A DNA stretch of 64,000 bases, from NCBI GenBank assembly GCA_023267435.1, contig JAHFNH010000002.1, forward strand, positions 4,219 through 68,218, written 5' to 3'. The translations under genes were made by a program, and so were the position numbers. This stretch comes from Candidatus Nomurabacteria bacterium. GTDB taxonomy: Bacteria > Patescibacteriota > Minisyncoccia > Phycocordibacterales > UBA9973. The notes under the pieces are model-generated. The model worked only from the letters and a program-made list of their open reading frames with translations, made no database searches and was not told the origin of the DNA. Of this stretch, positions 3,925-54,683 are shown piece by piece. The stretch's first letter is position 1. Each line of letters starts with the position of its first letter.

Positions 3925-4875
3925 ATGACAAAAAAGATATTATTATCCGGAATTCAGCCTTCAGGCAAACCACATATAGGTAATTATTTTGGAGCGATGA
4001 AACAATTTGTGGATTTGCAGGATCAATATGAAAGCTATGTCTTTATAGCTGATTATCATGCTCTGCATTCTTTAAGAAATGCAAAGGAAATGAGAGAAAA
4101 TATAATTGGTGTAATGCTTGATTATTTGGCTATTGGCCTTGATCCAGAAAAGGTGACTATTTTTAAACAGTCAGATGTTTCAGAACATACAGAGCTTTGT
4201 TGGATTTTCGATACTATTACAACTATGCCGTATCTTATGAGAGCTCACGCTTTCAAAGATGCTGAGGCAAAAAATAAAGAGATTGATGTCGGTACATTTA
4301 ATTATCCTGTTTTAATGGCAGCTGATATTTTATTATATAGTCCTGATATTGTGCCTGTTGGACAAGATCAGCAACAGCATGTCGAGATCGCTCGTGATAT
4401 TGCTCTTAAATTTAATAATACTTACGGTGATACATTTAAAATACCAGAGCATAAAATAATTAAAAACGTCGCTGTTGTTCCGGGTGTTGATGGGAGGAAA
4501 ATGTCTAAAAGCTATAAAAACACAATTCCACTTTTTGCTGATTATGAAGAAATAAAAAAGTGCGTGATGTCTATTGTGACAGATTCAAGCGGAGAGTTAC
4601 CAATAAATGTTTATTCTATTCATAAACTTTTCCGAGATGAAAAAGAATTAGAAAAAATTTACGAAGAAAAGAAAGGAAAATATAAAGAATTAAAAGAACT
4701 ACTTTTAGAGGATATAGAAAAATTTATTGCCCCGCTTCGTGAACGCAGGAAAGAATTTGAAAAGGATAAATCAAAAGTTCTAGAAATATTAAAAAAGGGA
4801 GCAGAGAAAGCTAAAAATATTTCTTCTAAAAAAATGGATTTAGTCAGAGAAAGAATAGGGGTTAAATTAGATTAA
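3925..4875 (+). CDS. trpS: Tryptophan--tRNA ligase
   Basis: Class I aaRS with HIGH-like 'PSGKPHIGNYFGA', 'KMSKS', and the conserved 'GQDQQQH' motif. Start placed at the internal Met of 'MTKKILLSGIQPSG'. Confidence 0.85.
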   Translation: MTKKILLSGIQPSGKPHIGNYFGAMKQFVDLQDQYESYVFIADYHALHSLRNAKEMRENIIGVMLDYLAIGLDPEKVTIFKQSDVSEHTELCWIFDTITTMPYLMRAHAFKDAEAKNKEIDVGTFNYPVLMAADILLYSPDIVPVGQDQQQHVEIARDIALKFNNTYGDTFKIPEHKIIKNVAVVPGVDGRKMSKSYKNTIPLFADYEEIKKCVMSIVTDSSGELPINVYSIHKLFRDEKELEKIYEEKKGKYKELKELLLEDIEKFIAPLRERRKEFEKDKSKVLEILKKGAEKAKNISSKKMDLVRERIGVKLD

Positions 4876-49715: not shown

Positions 49716-50471
49716 TTAATTACTCTTCGAGTCCCCTTTCAATGTAGCAAAAGCTTCTTGCACTGTAGTCATAAACTGAGCTGGGAAGATAATTGTTGAA
49801 TTCTTTTCAGTTGCTATTTCAGACATTGTTTGAAGTGTTCGAAGTTGTAATGCCACTGGATGAGCAGCAATAAGATCTGCTGCTTGTCCCAATTTCTCAG
49901 CAGCCTGGAATTCACCTTCAGCTGCGACAATTTTCGCACGACGTTCACGTTCTGCTTCGGCTTCTTTTGCCATGGCTCGTTGCATATTGTCAGGTAAAGT
50001 AATGTCTTTTATTTCGACTGCTGTTACCTGAGCTCCCCATGGTTCTGTATGGGAATCGATTACATCTTTGATTTGAATATTAATATCACTTGTTTGTGAA
50101 AGTAGTTGATCAAGAGAAAAACGGCCTACTACGTTTCGCACTGTCGTCTGACTGATTTGGTTAACAGCATCATAAACATTTTCAATTGCCACGACAGACT
50201 TTTGAGGATCAACAATGTGATAATACGCTACTGCAGCAATATCTATCGAAACATTATCTTTAGTAATAATTTTCTGTGACGGAATATTCATAGTAATTGT
50301 ACGTAAAGTGACTTTAGTCATACGTTCAAAAACTGGAACTAGAATAATAAGTCCAGGGCCACGCACTCCTGTGCATTTACCAAGGAAAAATATAACACCT
50401 CGGTCATATTCTTTGACCACTTTTAGTGATAATGAAAGCAATACTACTATTAATATGATTATGTATAACAT
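49716..50471 (-). CDS. SPFH/Band-7 (stomatin/prohibitin-like) protein
   Basis: N-terminal TM, '[12 protein letters not shown]', and an Ala/Glu-rich coiled coil '[22 protein letters not shown]'. Confidence 0.8.
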
Positions 50472-50791
50472 AAAGTGAGTATAGCACTTTCAGCTACTTC
50501 TTCAAATTTTTCTTGATTATCCATCAATTCATCAGGGACTTTCCAGTAACACATTGAAATAACTTTGCCGTCTGTTCTTTTGTAATTAAATTTATTCCAG
50601 CCTAAAGATGCGAGTTTATCAGCTAGTTCCCCTTTTGCTTTAAAATAAACTTGATTATCAATAATTAAAGAAAAAGGTATTCCTTTAGAATAAATACACC
50701 AGCCACCCATCATAGCTCGTGAAGTTATATGAGAGAGATTATTCATGAGGTCATAAACGACATAATCATGATATGAGGTATCTTTTTTCAT
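50459..50791 (-). CDS. TfoX N-terminal-domain-like protein
   Basis: '[26 protein letters not shown]' fits the TfoX_N pattern. It overlaps the SPFH gene by 13 nt, so the two are an operon. Confidence 0.4.
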
Positions 50792-50887
50792 TTTTTAATT
50801 ATAACAAATTTCCGAATTTCGCAAGGAACATTCTTGTAAATTAGAGTAGTAATCTTATAAGTTTTTTTATCTTGTTTTTCGTGCTAT

Positions 50888-51046
50888 TTAAAAAACAGCA
50901 ATACTTATAATTAACATTATAACAAAACTTAAAAATGAATTTAATAAAATTTGACTAAAACCATGTCCAGTAGAAAATCCAATCATTATAGATATAATAG
51001 CAAGAATTATAAATAACTTATTATTTTGTTTTTTATTATTTTCCAT
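50888..51046 (-). CDS. Small membrane protein
   Basis: 52 aa, 'MENNKKQNNKLFIILAIISIMIGFSTGHGFSQILLNSFLSFVIMLIISIAVF', found by manual translation of an intergenic gap. Confidence 0.3.
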   Translation of the reverse strand: MENNKKQNNKLFIILAIISIMIGFSTGHGFSQILLNSFLSFVIMLIISIAVF

Positions 51047-51092
51047 ATAATTTATATTATATCACATATCGTTAATACAAAAGTCTTACTCG

Positions 51093-51707
51093 TTAAACTT
51101 TTTTTTGAAGTTCAGAATCAAACCAAATAGCCTTCTTTTTTCCTATTAATCTAGAAAATATAGCGATTCTCTCTCTGCGCTTTAGGCTAAACACTTTTTC
51201 TATTTCTATAGTTTTTAATCTATGAGATTGTTCTTCACTAATACAATTACCATTATGTGTACAAATTTTTTCAACTTTAATCACCCCTCTTTTTTTATAA
51301 TATTTTTTTGAGCATTCAATATCACAAAATAGTGTATTTGGAGCTCTGCTATATAAAGACTTGTTACAATTTAAACAAAACATAAACGAACGAATATTAT
51401 TAACTCTTTGTTTCTTTTCTTCCCTTTTTATTTTTATCCAACATTCTATGCATAATGAATAATAGGTGTCTCTTCCACATGTACTACATTTATAAATTGG
51501 TCTGTATTCAGTGTTTTGAGTTATAGGTTTTACATAAAAATTATTTTTTATCTTTAAAATTCTTTCATATGCGTTATAAACTAACGTAAAAGAAGAATCA
51601 TTACCACCTTTGTCTGGGTGGGTTTTCTTTGCTTTTTCAAGGTATGCTTTTTTAATTTCTTCTAATGATGAGTACTGTGACACACCTAGAATTTCATAAT
51701 CATTCAT
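51093..51707 (-). CDS. J-domain protein with Cys-rich (zinc-ribbon-like) C-terminal region
   Basis: 'DYEILGVSQYSSLEEIKKAYLEKAKKTHPDKGG' with the HPD motif. Cys pairs follow: CSTC...CIEC, CLNC...CDIEC. Confidence 0.6.
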   Translation of the reverse strand: MNDYEILGVSQYSSLEEIKKAYLEKAKKTHPDKGGNDSSFTLVYNAYERILKIKNNFYVKPITQNTEYRPIYKCSTCGRDTYYSLCIECWIKIKREEKKQRVNNIRSFMFCLNCNKSLYSRAPNTLFCDIECSKKYYKKRGVIKVEKICTHNGNCISEEQSHRLKTIEIEKVFSLKRRERIAIFSRLIGKKKAIWFDSELQKKV

Positions 51708-51710
51708 AAA

Positions 51711-52460
51711 TTATTTCTTCTTTAAAATATTTAATACTGTTGACACTTCATCAATAAATTGTGCGTTTGCGGGCTTTAATTCATGAGGCATAAATTTAGT
51801 TCTTAAAATATTTTTAGTTGAATATCTTTCTTTTTTCATTGGAAGCAATGGACCACGTCCGTTATGATAAAGTTGCCATAGTGCTTCATGAATACCTTCT
51901 AAAAGGATACAAAATTTTTCCAATTCACTAATATTAACTTTATCAAAAAGAATTTTAACTTCTTCATTGGTAGAATATTTCTTATGTCCGAACTGGTGTC
52001 TTATTGGACGATATATATTTTCATAAATTTTCTGTTGTTTTGAAATAAATTTTTTAAATTTTCTAAAATCATCATCAGTTGGCTCATAAAAACTTTCCAT
52101 ATATTTTTTTAAATAGCTATTCATTTTATCAGTTTTTTTATCTTCATTGTTTACCCATCTTTTTTTAAATGATTTTTTAGAAAAAAGAGATTTATTATTT
52201 TCAACAACTTTAAATAAAGTATGGATGTTGTGCTTGGATTCATTATCAAAAATCCTTCCAATTGTTATGAAAGTTGAATTTTGAAAACCACTAAGAACTG
52301 TATTCCAAAATGTCGGAGTTCTATTCATGGTACTAAGGATATGTTTATTTTTATTAACAATAACATGAATTGCTAACTCCATATATAGATATTTAGAAAG
52401 AAGAATAACTTCATTTCTAAAAATATTTAATTCTAGTAAGAATTTTTCTTCCGAAGACAT
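51711..52460 (-). CDS. Hypothetical all-alpha protein with an Rx4H (HEPN-like) motif
   Basis: 'YRPIRHQFGHKK' matches R-x4-H. It is co-oriented with, and 3 nt from, the J-domain gene. Confidence 0.3.
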   Translation of the reverse strand: MSSEEKFLLELNIFRNEVILLSKYLYMELAIHVIVNKNKHILSTMNRTPTFWNTVLSGFQNSTFITIGRIFDNESKHNIHTLFKVVENNKSLFSKKSFKKRWVNNEDKKTDKMNSYLKKYMESFYEPTDDDFRKFKKFISKQQKIYENIYRPIRHQFGHKKYSTNEEVKILFDKVNISELEKFCILLEGIHEALWQLYHNGRGPLLPMKKERYSTKNILRTKFMPHELKPANAQFIDEVSTVLNILKKK

Positions 52461-52641
52461 AGAACTATTTTACCATTTTTTAATTTTTGTAAACTAAAAA
52501 ATATATTTTATTAAGCATTTTAAGTGCGTGGACCTAATTCAAACTGGCTAGCATCCTCTGTCTCAGATACTCCAAGACTTTGCAGTATAAAGGTTTCAGG
52601 ATGATTCTTAGTATACCATTTTGACGCTCTTCGGAATAACT

Positions 52642-53163
52642 TTAAAAACAGAAATTAATGAAAGAAACCAAAATTAGTGCTAACCCAACAAATGCAGCAA
52701 TAAACACATAATTTAATATCGAATCAATAAATTTAACTCTGATTATTCTTGGTTTAATTTCTGTATCATTAACTAAACCAACGAACTCATCTGCGTATTT
52801 CTTCATGGCTTCTTCCTCCTTCTCTAGAATTGCCTTTTTAATCTTTGCCGCATCATCTTGGTAGTCATAAATTAAATTAGATGTTGAAATTGTGGAATTT
52901 ACTAGAGAATGTTTGAGGCTGAAAGCCAAATAAAGTATGGAACCAATCATTAACAACTCACCAAATAAAAATAATTCTAAATTTTCTATGAATTGAAAAG
53001 CAGTAAATCCAAATCCAGCAATAAGACCGAGAATACCCATAAGTGTATTCGCAAGTGAAATAACCTGCTGAACCTCACTATTTTCTCTCTCAGCAAGTTT
53101 TTCTCTTATGGCAATACTGAACTGAGCTCTGTTTGTTAAATTTTTTATTTGTTCTTCATTCAT
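52642..53163 (-). CDS. Hypothetical membrane protein
   Basis: 173 aa with three or four TM segments. Confidence 0.4.
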   Translation of the reverse strand: MNEEQIKNLTNRAQFSIAIREKLAERENSEVQQVISLANTLMGILGLIAGFGFTAFQFIENLELFLFGELLMIGSILYLAFSLKHSLVNSTISTSNLIYDYQDDAAKIKKAILEKEEEAMKKYADEFVGLVNDTEIKPRIIRVKFIDSILNYVFIAAFVGLALILVSFINFCF

Positions 53164-53208
53164 GACCTTTTGCTATGCTCCGCGGACTCCGAACTTACCT
53201 CAACTTTG

Positions 53209-53279
53209 CTGGGAGACATGGACTCGAACCATGATTCACGGCTTCAAAGGCCGCTGTCCTACCATTAGACGATCTCCCA
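53209..53279 (-). tRNA. tRNA-Gln (anticodon UUG)
   Basis: Manual fold: acceptor TGGGAGA/TCTCCCA (7 bp), D-stem GTCT/GGAC, anticodon stem GCGGC/GCCGT with loop CTTTGAA, T-arm CATGG-TTCGAGT-CCATG, discriminator G. No encoded CCA. Confidence 0.8.
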
Positions 53280-53285
53280 ATTTTA

Positions 53286-53522
53286 TTATAACTTTAACTT
53301 CAATGCTCTCTTTCCTTTGGCTGTTTTGTAATATCTTTCCATATTAAATGCTTCGTACTTGTCATTATATGCTTCAGAATACAAAATTCCAAACGGAACA
53401 CGAGACTTAGTAGATCTAACTCTGCCTGAATTATGATACTTAAGTCGCTCTTCTATATCTTGGGTACAACCAATATATAAGTTACCATCTTTCTCGCTTT
53501 TTAATACATAAACATAATGCAT
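53286..53522 (-). CDS. GIY-YIG nuclease-family protein (small, YhbQ-like)
   Basis: 'YVYVLKSEKDGNLYIGCTQDIEERLKYHNSG' is the GIY-YIG core. Confidence 0.75.
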   Translation of the reverse strand: MHYVYVLKSEKDGNLYIGCTQDIEERLKYHNSGRVRSTKSRVPFGILYSEAYNDKYEAFNMERYYKTAKGKRALKLKL

Positions 53523-53530
53523 ATATATTA

Positions 53531-53600
53531 TGTCCTACCATTAGCCTCGCCCGTAGGTTGGAGCCTACTGGCTACGGCCGAGGGACAATCTTCCCAATAA
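53531..53600 (-). repeat. Degenerate partial copy of the tRNA-Gln 5' half carrying a GC-rich nested hairpin
   Basis: The minus strand reads TTGGGAAGAT...CTAATGGTAGGACA and matches the tRNA 5' end and D-loop. The ~40-nt insert CCCTCGGCCGTAGCCAGTAGGCTCCAACCTACGGGCGAGG forms two nested stems. Confidence 0.5.
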
Positions 53601-53615
53601 AGCCCTCAAAACCTT

Positions 53616-54683
53616 TTAATCTTTACTTATTATCTCAATAAGTGCAAGTTCTAAAGGTAATTCTGATACAAACGCTCTATCTATGTTTTGGTACGCTTCG
53701 AGCAATACCGAAAGCTGTGCTGACCTGAGCATTCCTATCTTATCCTTTTTTACCAATTCTTTCAAGAAGTCTAAGTCCGCACTAGATAATACACCAGTCA
53801 TTTCTTCTTCGAGTTTTGGCGCGTATTTCAAAATTATTGCCATGCGGAATTTTTGAATGATTAGTTTTAGATACAATTTCATATCCAAATTCTCACCAGA
53901 TGCTTTTTGGACAGCCATGATTCCCTCTTCTAAATTTTTATCTGCTATTGCAGAAATAAAATTATTTACTAAAGTTGTTTTTGGCGCACCAGTTATTTTT
54001 TCTACATCTTCTCTTTTTATTACGCCTCCACGGCGTATCGCCGAAGAGGCGATTTTTCCAGAAGAGAAGTTTAAAACTTTCTGCAAAGCGCCTTCAGTAT
54101 CACGAAAAGATCCATCGCCTAATATTGCGATGAGTTCTGCAGATCCGGCATCAAGTTCAAAACCTTCTTTCTCGGCAATATCTAAAATAACATTTTTTAA
54201 AATAATGTCAGATGGTTTTCTAAAAGTAAAAACCTGACATCGAGAAACAATTGTCTCAGGAACTTTGTGTAATTCTGTGGTAGCTAAAATAAATATGACG
54301 TGTGCTGGTGGTTCTTCTAAAGTTTTCAATAATGCACCCCAAGCATCTTTGGAAAGCATATGTACCTCATCGATAATATAAACTTTGTATTTTGAGTCGA
54401 AAGGAAGAGTGCGCACACCATCACGTAGAGTTCGAATATCTTCGATTCCTCTGTTTGAAGCGGCATCTATCTCATATAAGTCATTTTCGGAAACTCCGAT
54501 CTGTGTGGCGAAGATTCTAGCGACAGAAGTCTTACCTGTACCGCGAGAACCGACAAAAAGGTACGCATGAGAGACCTTTCCAGTGTCTACGGAGCTTTCC
54601 AACACTTTTACGATATGATCTTGTCCTAGCACCTCTTTGAAGGTTTTAGGACGATATTTGCGGTATAAAGCTAAATCGTGCAT
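53616..54683 (-). CDS. dnaX: DNA polymerase III subunit gamma/tau (short form)
   Basis: 'YRPKTFKEVLGQDHIV', Walker A 'GSRGTGKTS', and 'SRCQ' in the sensor region. Confidence 0.85.
   Translation of the reverse strand: MHDLALYRKYRPKTFKEVLGQDHIVKVLESSVDTGKVSHAYLFVGSRGTGKTSVARIFATQIGVSENDLYEIDAASNRGIEDIRTLRDGVRTLPFDSKYKVYIIDEVHMLSKDAWGALLKTLEEPPAHVIFILATTELHKVPETIVSRCQVFTFRKPSDIILKNVILDIAEKEGFELDAGSAELIAILGDGSFRDTEGALQKVLNFSSGKIASSAIRRGGVIKREDVEKITGAPKTTLVNNFISAIADKNLEEGIMAVQKASGENLDMKLYLKLIIQKFRMAIILKYAPKLEEEMTGVLSSADLDFLKELVKKDKIGMLRSAQLSVLLEAYQNIDRAFVSELPLELALIEIISKD

Follow-up and report, generated by a model that had tools for sequence, protein, structure and literature searches.

A GIY-YIG nuclease gene between a palindrome-split 5′ copy and an intact copy of tRNA-Gln: a candidate homing-like cassette of Patescibacteria

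The dnaX/tRNA-Gln locus and its relatives

The DNA considered here is a stretch of 64,000 nt from Candidatus Nomurabacteria bacterium (contig JAHFNH010000002.1, assembly GCA_023267435.1). This stretch is referred to as the window, and coordinates given without a label are window positions. The dnaX, serS, ftsQ-like and dus genes place it within the Patescibacteria (Nomurabacteria/Paceibacterota/Minisyncoccia-like). On the minus strand, beyond the end of dnaX at 53616, a small open reading frame (ORF) for a GIY-YIG nuclease lies between an intact tRNA-Gln gene and a displaced copy of the 5′ part of that tRNA, and the displaced copy is split by a GC-rich palindrome, termed P. The subject of this report is this three-part module, its recurrence on other tRNA genes, and the possibility that it is a mobile cassette.

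The first part of the displaced copy (TTGGGAAGATTGTC, 53584–53597 by direct reading) begins 18 nt past the dnaX stop codon, which is where the real tRNA begins in relatives. It corresponds to tRNA-Gln positions −1 to 12 with one A inserted and one C>T change. A partial 5′ copy had been recognised in a preliminary description of this DNA and is indeed present; its start is at 53597, and not at 53600 as was given there. Next comes P (CCTCGGCCGTAGCCAGTAGGCTCCAACCTACGGGCGAGG, 53545–53583), an imperfect palindrome with arms CCTCGGCCGTAG and CTACGGGCGAGG, which interrupts the D-stem behind its GTC and has one duplicated C after it. The insert is GC-rich as had been described (69% GC as against ∼ 33% locally and genome-wide) and comprises 39 nt plus the duplicated C. 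The second part of the displaced copy (CTAATGGTAGGACA, 53531–53544) corresponds exactly to tRNA positions 12–26 and is an exact 14-mer repeat of 53268–53255. A leader of 8 nt (TAATATAT, 53523–53530 by direct reading) then separates this tRNA-like segment from the ATG of the GIY-YIG ORF.

The ORF itself (53286–53522, from the ORF list) encodes 78 aa and is followed, after a directly read 6 nt spacer (53280–53285) containing a second in-frame TAA, by the intact tRNA-Gln(UUG) at 53208/9–53279. Both genes are as previously described: the tRNA was identified by ARAGORN and matches Rfam RF00005 over its full length with a score of 64.2 bits (gathering threshold 29), and the ORF product matches the Pfam GIY-YIG family (PF01541, E = 1.9e-15). 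The window ORF ends 6 nt early, at TAA TAA, and its frame persists into the tRNA as AAT TGG GAG ATC GTC TAA. The upstream tRNA copy is dead and split by P, and the downstream copy completes the gene right behind the ORF. Within 52900–53900 the intact tRNA is the sole Rfam match, whether the cut-off is the gathering threshold or E ≤ 10; the upstream partial copy stays unmatched, and no group I or group II intron or other RNA family was matched by the covariance models. No terminator-like site was found at the locus, and promoter-like matches are at background level.

The residues Y5, Y16, G18, R26, H30 and E62, which are invariant in 53 homologues, are all retained in the window protein. An AlphaFold model (pLDDT 96.3) shows the E-E-H-E-H-H order of secondary structure of the GIY-YIG fold. 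Among solved structures, the domain-only UPF0213 proteins BH0048 and EF2693 are the nearest relatives; Foldseek matched the model to UPF0213 (1zg2), to Slx1 (TM 0.68–0.72) and, behind these, to the I-TevI catalytic domain (TM 0.50–0.54). The ORF product is therefore predicted to be a bare SLX1/UPF0213-type catalytic domain. The ratio of non-synonymous to synonymous divergence (dN/dS) is ∼ 0.08–0.15, which indicates purifying selection on the ORF.

Related genomes show what the locus looks like when the module is absent. Labels beginning with L denote the relative or metagenome loci compared with the window. In L008, L004, L005 and L006 an intact tRNA-Gln(UUG) lies 20–80 nt past dnaX, with no GIY-YIG gene and no partial copy. 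Since the partial copy of the window stands where the tRNA of these relatives starts, the window differs by an insertion of 317 bp accompanied by duplication of the tRNA 5′ end, and the preliminary suggestion of a nuclease-associated insertion that rebuilt the tRNA gains support from these genomes. Two relatives carry the full module, namely L149 (DnaX ∼ 78% identical to that of the window) and L162 (GCA_049287305.1; 76–78%). The cassette is missing from L008 (78–80%), from L002 (∼ 78%), in which the tRNA is inverted, and from L165–L167 (92%), in which dnaX is separated from a different tRNA-Gln by an unrelated 241-aa ORF. L164 (GCA_049287045.1), also at 92%, has a tRNA identical to that of the window and neither P nor the ORF, and retains only a relic, a 63-nt stretch upstream of the tRNA with degenerate TTGGGAGA..AATGGTAG. 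Altogether, the cassette-free or relic-only relatives span DnaX identities of 51–92%.

Presence/absence polymorphism at one conserved site, as is looked for in homing genes, is thus seen among relatives at 76–92% DnaX identity, and this patchy distribution is the pattern of gain, decay and loss that would be expected of a selfish insertion. It had been proposed that a partial copy without the GIY-YIG gene in relatives would mark an ancient remnant unrelated to the nuclease. The degenerate relic of L164 is the sole case of this kind, and it reads better as a decayed cassette. L149 alone has a small rubredoxin-like ORF (MYRYQCSDCGWIYDEALGYPEKG..., L149:1456–1620) that separates the cassette from dnaX.

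tRNA genes are classic integration sites at which islands leave partial tRNA copies (PMC9897764), and the region past the tRNA 3′ end is variable here. The locus could accordingly be taken for the scar of an ordinary integrase-mediated island, or for a chance repeat. At this locus, however, it is the 5′ end that is duplicated, the repeats are 317 bp apart, and a single 78-aa ORF and no integrase lie between them. The earlier contrast with canonical 3′-end islands holds for this element of ∼ 300 bp and for the more than 40 loci in which it recurs (see below), and the island-scar and chance explanations can be regarded as refuted.

Recurrence of the module on other tRNA genes

Recurrence was assessed in 80 metagenome loci that were chosen by two peptide motifs of the protein alone. 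These loci contain 69 distinct GIY-YIG sequences, 50 of which are close homologues with ≥ 56% identity to the window protein. A co-oriented tRNA gene stands at the ORF stop in 45 of the 46 non-redundant close homologues with enough downstream sequence (41 tRNA-Gln, both UUG and CUG, two tRNA-Glu and two tRNA-Ser), and P is found no more than 200 nt upstream of the ORF in 44 of 48. The usual arrangement in related loci is tRNA positions 1–12, P, tRNA positions 12 to ∼ 26, a leader of 0–12 nt and the ATG, the tRNA 12–26 segment abutting the start codon in most cases. The TAGGA of the D-loop was considered as a Shine–Dalgarno sequence and dropped, as its distance to the ATG varies from 1 to > 10 nt across loci. 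In 34 of the 45 loci the ORF extends into the tRNA. The commonest overlap is exactly 15 nt, such that tRNA positions 1–15 encode the four C-terminal residues (C/W-G-I/V-V) and provide the stop codon, which is the TAA of the D-loop. As the same architecture is present in more than 40 independent loci, the arrangement in the window is not due to chance.

The genes upstream of the module fall into at least 23 groups, in which dnaX before tRNA-Gln(UUG) (n = 15) and ftsX before tRNA-Gln(CUG) (n = 14) recur; this indicates that the tRNA genes occupied by the cassette are resident ones in their usual chromosomal positions. More distant GIY-YIG clades precede tRNA-Leu(UAA), Leu(GAG), His, Ser(UGA), Ser(GGA) and a further tRNA-Gln, in each case with a copy of 23–47 nt from the 5′ end of their own tRNA. 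These copies are split by other palindromes, either CCTGCCTGCCGGCAGGCAGG (‘P2’) or pairs of small GC hairpins. Both Gln isoacceptors, together with Glu, Leu(UAA), Leu(GAG), His, Ser(UGA) and Ser(GGA), thus show a cognate 5′ duplication, and its recurrence with an ORF over these five amino acid specificities also supports the insertion with rebuilding of the tRNA that was first proposed for the window. Moreover, in six tRNA types a constant 7–17 nt separates the palindrome from the end of the left fragment, and the palindrome type co-varies with GIY-YIG clade and tRNA type, the clades being coarse ones from a neighbour-joining tree. This tree, built from 74-aa proteins, is too weakly resolved to tell vertical from horizontal history.

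A hidden Markov model search gives 17,654 protein clusters (50% identity) for the family at E ≤ 1e-3 and 3,946 at E ≤ 1e-10. Many entries, among them P0011, P0030, P0031 and P0071, are 100–140 aa long. In these cases the gene callers have probably chosen a start too far upstream, so that the reading frame runs through P as well as the tRNA fragment, and the N-terminus of P0011 contains GRSSLGRS, which resembles translated P. One entry, P0124, has 1390 aa and 20 matched GIY-YIG stretches.

GIY-YIG genes are also found on the other side of the tRNA. In L164 a different, 95-aa GIY-YIG gene (4227–4514, within an element at L164:4193–4594) lies directly 3′ of the same tRNA-Gln. Imperfect inverted repeats of 22 nt (CTTCGGCAGGCTCAGTGTAAAC / GTTAACCCTGAGTTTACCGAAG) delimit this element, as does a directly repeated 19-nt stretch from the tRNA 3′ end (GGAGTCCATGTCTCCCAGC), and the L164 DNA behind the 19-nt repeat matches the window DNA behind its own tRNA. 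The L164 element is a transposon-like mirror image of the 5′ cassette. Taken together, the two elements indicate that both tRNA ends are landing sites for small GIY-YIG elements.

A second, distant GIY-YIG gene (33–47% identity) is often found 3′ of the same tRNA-Gln, so that nucleases flank the tRNA on both sides (L007:7341–7568, L091:3040–3291, L104:1536–1805, L106:605–883, L114:510–752 and L138:3033–3293). A 3′ tRNA repeat like that of L164 was not found in L007, L091, L094, L104, L106, L114 or L138. Another clade stands directly past tRNA-Gly(UCC) in Thr-Gly-Tyr clusters (L144, L145, L152, L153, L155 and L156; the gene is at about 2501–2755 in L144, L145 and L156), and a further member (L159:2501–2764) lies 74 nt upstream of a tmRNA gene (L159:2838–3218).

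In the window, the DNA past the tRNA (49716–53163, minus strand) encodes an unknown 173-aa membrane protein, a HEPN AbiU2-family protein (51711–52460), a DnaJ-domain/zinc-ribbon protein, a TfoX-N protein and an SPFH/band-7 protein. The window shares nothing past the tRNA 3′ end with L162, L164, L165, L008 or L002, in which these genes were not found behind tRNA-Gln, and this supports the earlier proposal of a variable region starting at that end.

The palindrome and the displaced tRNA copy

P is unique in the window even when three mismatches are allowed (none expected), and no other GC-rich hairpin of the 64 kb has a stem of 8 bp or more; nor does the window contain a second copy of the GIY-YIG gene. 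The outer stem consists of CCTCG/CGAGG and CCGT/ACGG with a conserved G·G mismatch, as the preliminary description had it in essence. At minimum energy the inner stem pairs AGCC with GGCT, and the GTAGG/CCTAC pairing named previously competes with the outer stem. P folds with −13.7 kcal/mol as DNA (z = −4.7) and with −19.5 kcal/mol as RNA. When the whole 96-nt region is compared with shuffled sequences, it folds no better than they do (z = −0.61).

The 12-nt arms (CCTCGGCCGTAG / CTACGGGCGAGG, including the G·G mismatch) are 99.2% identical over 20 loci, and the centre of P (15–17 nt) is 71% identical in the same loci. The third codon positions of the ORF in these loci are 46% identical, as compared with 31% expected from composition, and synonymous divergence is saturated. 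No compensatory pair change is present in the 20-copy alignment. The arms are thus conserved as sequence, which points to sequence constraint or constant renewal and not to the mere upkeep of an RNA helix. A structured RNA, one of the options raised at the outset, is not supported by covariation.

These data bear on the idea that the hairpin and the tRNA fragment act mainly as RNA, whether as a stabiliser or regulator of the mRNA, as an insulator against dnaX read-through or as a modulator of RNase P; such a role would be compatible with mobility. It would fit the constant location of hairpin and fragment between the upstream gene and the ORF, the stability of the RNA hairpin, which forms in either orientation, and the ORF/tRNA overlap, which implies that processing competes with translation. 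Conservation of the arms as sequence, the shuffling result for the 96-nt region, and the finding of neither a T-tract or terminator-like site nor an Rfam match all argue against it. Moreover, P also occurs in coding regions and T-arms, where a role as an mRNA leader is impossible. An RNA function as the main explanation is therefore considered very unlikely.

P is not confined to one context. It is inverted in 11 loci, and then lies at tRNA positions 6/7 rather than 12/13. It is nested within another P in L124, L088 and L138, forms arrays in L105/L106, L132, L098 and L091/L094, and is found in T-arms in L127 and L130. In L088, L128 and L130 it disrupts, at the same 12/13 site, second and nearly full-length tRNA-Gln copies. 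Each insertion sits behind a C (GTC, ATC, TTC or CTC) with one extra C thereafter. The arms of P are 12-nt inverted repeats accompanied by one extra C, and the window-type ORF itself has no bounding inverted repeats. Together, these observations show that P-type palindromes are able to appear at new sites. They do not support the notion that the hairpin reflects decay of the half-copy, since P is a sequence-conserved repeat resembling the repetitive extragenic palindromes (REPs), and one that is also found inverted, nested, in tandem and within coding regions. Its REP-like traits are the palindrome, the GTAG and the conserved arms; there is one copy in 64 kb. No RAYT (HUH/Y1) transposase was found among the ORFs examined around the locus, and the neighbouring gene of P is the GIY-YIG gene.

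Several of these arrangements are elaborate. In L091 (2744–2830) and L094 (869–1036), the interval from the ORF stop to the tRNA holds repeated 81-nt units made up of tRNA 1–12, P, tRNA 13–26 and a spacer, and four P copies lie head to tail at L105:2329–2487 (L105/L106). The tandem arrays in these two pairs of loci point to frequent local recombination. The second tRNA-Gln copies disrupted by P lie directly behind the intact one (L088:2840–2920, L128:2835–2935 and L130:1575–1745), and in L130 the D-arm holds two P copies and the T-arm a further palindrome.

Palindromes of these types are also found in dnaX. The dnaX gene of L002 has an in-frame P within a variable linker (L002:4612–4637), encoding SLGHRPTGEA, and that of L008 has an in-frame 18-nt P2-type palindrome in a variable linker (CCTGCCTGCGCAGGCAGG, L008:4879–4896), which adds LPAQAG. 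These insertions resemble Rickettsia palindromic elements and intragenic REPs. The dnaX gene of the window contains a 30-nt in-frame insertion (54024–54053, minus strand; amino acids 211–220, IASSAIRRGG) with two small GC hairpins, ATCGCCTCTTCGGCGAT and ACGCCGTGGAGGCGT. It is missing from L164/L165, with their 92%-identical DnaX, and from L162; all of these DnaX proteins have 345–349 aa. The double hairpin resembles those that split tRNA-Ser 5′ copies in L136 and L146.

Such findings could be read to mean that P is an independent palindrome, similar to a REP or a miniature inverted-repeat transposable element (MITE), which is moved by another enzyme with a preference for TC sites (D-stem GATCGTC) and survives only in dead DNA. 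The link to the GIY-YIG gene would then be indirect, the cassette creating the only dead tRNA copies available. The placement behind a C with one extra C at many kinds of site (dnaX coding sequence, T-arms, other P copies), the two orientations, and the dnaX palindromes of L002 and L008 with no GIY-YIG gene visible nearby all agree with this; moreover, REPs are known to lie in genes for replication and repair, and some REP families lack a transposase of their own (PMC3733652). However, a MITE that fills tiny targets of 26 nt in 44 of 48 loci should abound in intergenic DNA, and GC-rich hairpins are rare, with one in the 64-kb window and 0–2 weak ones in the loci of relatives. This rarity argues against a hyperactive independent MITE and for a direct link between P and the cassette. 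The co-variation of palindrome type with GIY-YIG clade is likewise unfavourable, and the fixed spacing of 7–17 nt in six tRNA types argues for mechanistic coupling. An independent palindrome is, on this evidence, distinctly unlikely.

The left (displaced) and right (intact) tRNA sequences were compared in 31 unique loci of the window's type. Left positions 1–12 equal those of the locus's own tRNA in 22 of the 31 loci, as against 14% of random pairs, and acceptor stems vary widely among loci. For positions 12–24 the corresponding values are 18 of 31 and 41%. The sharper match of positions 1–12 suggests that the junction between host and element lies at the left edge of P. In ∼ 10 loci (including L100, L127, L137, L132 and L126) the left copy represents a different but valid tRNA-Gln allele. 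As neutral sites of the ORF are saturated, the near-perfect left copies are not old neutral scars; they would be either renewed by repeated insertion or conversion, or held by selection. The left copy of the window, with its one indel and one substitution, is decaying.

A proposed mobile cassette and its relation to known systems

The reading that we favour, with a probability of roughly 0.6, is that the module is a widespread selfish, homing-like GIY-YIG cassette of Patescibacteria that resides in tRNA genes, rebuilds the tRNA through duplication of its 5′ end and is accompanied by a REP-like palindrome. How the cassette moves is put forward with less confidence than this general statement. 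In the proposed scheme, the cassette, consisting of the GC-rich P, the short tRNA-like leader and the GIY-YIG ORF of ∼ 80 aa and lying in the 5′ part of tRNA-Gln, would spread like a free-standing homing endonuclease or a mitochondrial ‘mobile ORF’. The nuclease would make a break in or beside a tRNA gene, and repair from a cassette-bearing copy would use the tRNA sequence as homology, with only those products that have a matching acceptor stem giving a working tRNA. Alternatively, by analogy with SLX1, the break might arise through structure-specific activity on the palindrome. P would be the cognate DNA site, acting as the 5′ terminus and/or as the recognition structure of the nuclease, or as an insert that destroys the target in the dead copy. 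With tRNA sequence on either side, P could also convert other tRNA-Gln copies alone, which would explain the second copies that are disrupted by P. Finally, the ORF may be transcribed from the tRNA promoter, and an ORF that overlaps the tRNA would be fully translated only from unprocessed precursor RNA.

Several points weigh against this interpretation. Cleavage, its target and movement are all inferred. The rebuilt tRNA keeps the whole presumed target, and immunity through disruption of the site is not what is seen: the window tRNA is identical to that of the cassette-free L164, and only the dead left copy is disrupted, by P. No consistent difference in tRNA-Gln was found between cassette-free and cassette-bearing genomes. 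The closest contrast between a filled and an empty site is at 92% DnaX identity, where gain is indistinguishable from loss. The link between P and the nuclease is statistical and is not proven, and P or P2 is present in the dnaX genes of L002 and L008 with no GIY-YIG gene seen in the 9 kb covered. No relatives of the ORF family and no P copies with exact arms were found in the viral contigs of IMG/VR, and hence no vector. All 78 aa of the protein form the catalytic domain, which leaves no room for a DNA-binding domain, and SLX1/UPF0213 is a better match to the protein than I-TevI is. In I-TevI, the Seg proteins and other characterised GIY-YIG homing enzymes, DNA is bound by a separate domain, and Seg proteins are of ∼ 200 aa or more.

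Conservation of the protein is a further difficulty for a mobile cassette. In the dnaX-linked loci the GIY-YIG protein is more conserved than DnaX (65% vs. 50% mean identity), and its identity rises with that of the host DnaX (a moderate correlation, Spearman 0.38). Conservation and co-phylogeny would fit long vertical residence, or domestication, equally well. Under this alternative, an SLX1-like repair nuclease was inserted long ago, has been inherited vertically and is co-transcribed with tRNA-Gln, and the 5′ copy with P is a conserved leader that is kept tRNA-like by gene conversion or selection. A dN/dS of ∼ 0.1 and the conserved chromosomal positions behind dnaX and ftsX speak for it, as do the left copies that are near-perfect despite saturated synonymous sites in the ORF, as expected of a functional or homogenised leader. 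However, the module is patchy at 76–92% DnaX identity (present in the window, L149 and L162, absent from L008, L002 and L165, and a relic in L164), the left copy of the window is decaying, and that of ∼ 10 loci comes from a different tRNA-Gln allele. Furthermore, the same design is used on at least seven tRNA species with different palindromes, and the tandem and nested P copies and second disrupted tRNA copies look like selfish turnover. Domestication is therefore held to be unlikely, and a selfish cassette is retained as the better account.

A more specific version of the cassette model is offered tentatively, and we regard it as possible but doubtful in its full form. The nuclease and its cognate palindromes may constitute a previously unrecognised two-part mobile system that is similar to RAYT-REP but nuclease-based and that colonises the tRNA genes of Patescibacteria, the palindrome being its structured site and terminus. 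The element would copy into the D-arm/anticodon-arm region of a specific tRNA gene with duplication of the tRNA 5′ end; the tRNA would supply the promoter, the last codons and the stop, RNase P would limit expression, and the palindromes would occasionally land in frame in genes such as dnaX.

If the cassette interpretation is correct, it would add a third way of inhabiting an essential gene to splicing (introns and inteins) and integrase-mediated integration at the 3′ end, namely 5′-end duplication around a minimal nuclease ORF that borrows the promoter, last codons and stop of the tRNA. The pairing of nuclease clade and palindrome family would provide a candidate enzyme for ‘orphan’ palindromes, and the origin and mobility of REP-like or GC-cluster-like palindromes would become testable in a compact system. 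The scale is considerable, with thousands of protein clusters in the family. The model would also explain partial tRNA copies in the candidate phyla radiation (CPR), GIY-YIG gene calls that are over-extended at the N-terminus, and in-frame palindrome inserts in core genes. Nuclease-palindrome pairs may also be a source of compact sequence- or structure-specific DNA tools.

No description of a module combining a GIY-YIG gene, tRNA 5′ duplication and a palindrome was found in the open-access papers and preprints searched. Islands borne by integrases usually duplicate the 3′ part of the tRNA. They leave one complete and one partial tRNA copy flanking the insert (PMC9897764), are kilobases long and encode an integrase, whereas the cassette is 0.3 kb long, has no integrase and duplicates the 5′ part. 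GIY-YIG proteins are also encoded in CPR rRNA genes, by inserts that are neither group I nor group II introns; these are sparse and were judged by the authors to lie outside homing (PMC11270868). Like the cassette, they belong to the same radiation and place a GIY-YIG ORF inside a stable-RNA gene; tRNA, and hence tRNA 5′ duplication, is not mentioned in that work.

In sequence and fold, the best matches of the protein are UPF0213/YhbQ and SLX1 (PDB 1zg2, 1ywl, 6seh and 7cq3), and UPF0213 proteins likewise consist of the domain only. SLX1 is a structure-specific nuclease of branched DNA, and this analogy suggests hairpins or cruciforms as possible substrates of the cassette nuclease. SLX1 itself needs SLX4 and carries a RING/PHD domain. 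The UPF0213/YhbQ members of model organisms are not known to be linked to tRNA genes. The free-standing GIY-YIG Seg enzymes of T-even phages, such as SegB in the T4 tRNA cluster, are intron-free and spread by a double-strand break with co-conversion of the flanks (PMC2988022, PMC13096335). The cassette gene is similarly intron-free and associated with tRNA; however, neither tRNA 5′ duplication nor a cognate palindrome has been described for Seg, and the window protein is structurally nearer to SLX1/UPF0213.

The palindromes invite comparison with REPtrons, Rickettsia palindromic elements and GTAG/CGTC-tagged REPs, which are palindromes of 20–40 nt with a GTAG that occur singly, as dimers or in arrays, are sometimes in frame in replication and repair genes, and are thought to be mobilised by a single nearby protein gene (PMC3733652). 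P differs from REPs in its low copy number (one in 64 kb), in having the GTAG inside the stem rather than as an unpaired tag, and in its site within a tRNA fragment; in contrast to REPtrons, its associated gene encodes a GIY-YIG nuclease and not an HUH/Y1 transposase.

The nearest functional analogue is provided by the mobile ORFs (mORFs) of fungal mitochondria (Allomyces atp6; Glomus atp6, atp9, cox2 and nad3), in which a free-standing endonuclease ORF, of the LAGLIDADG type or, in atp9, of the GIY-YIG type, is inserted in a gene (PMC3630166). The mORF brings a replacement gene terminus and the native terminus stays as a nearby duplicate, so that the host gene remains functional, sometimes with the ORF in frame (PMC3630166). 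In the cassette, by contrast, the host gene is a tRNA gene, the duplicated end is the 5′ end and the setting is bacterial, not organellar; the ORF of ∼ 80 aa encodes a bare catalytic domain and often takes its last codons and stop from the tRNA, and the displaced copy is split by a conserved palindrome. Overall, the module seems to represent a well-populated family that has so far gone unnoticed and not a categorically new mechanism.

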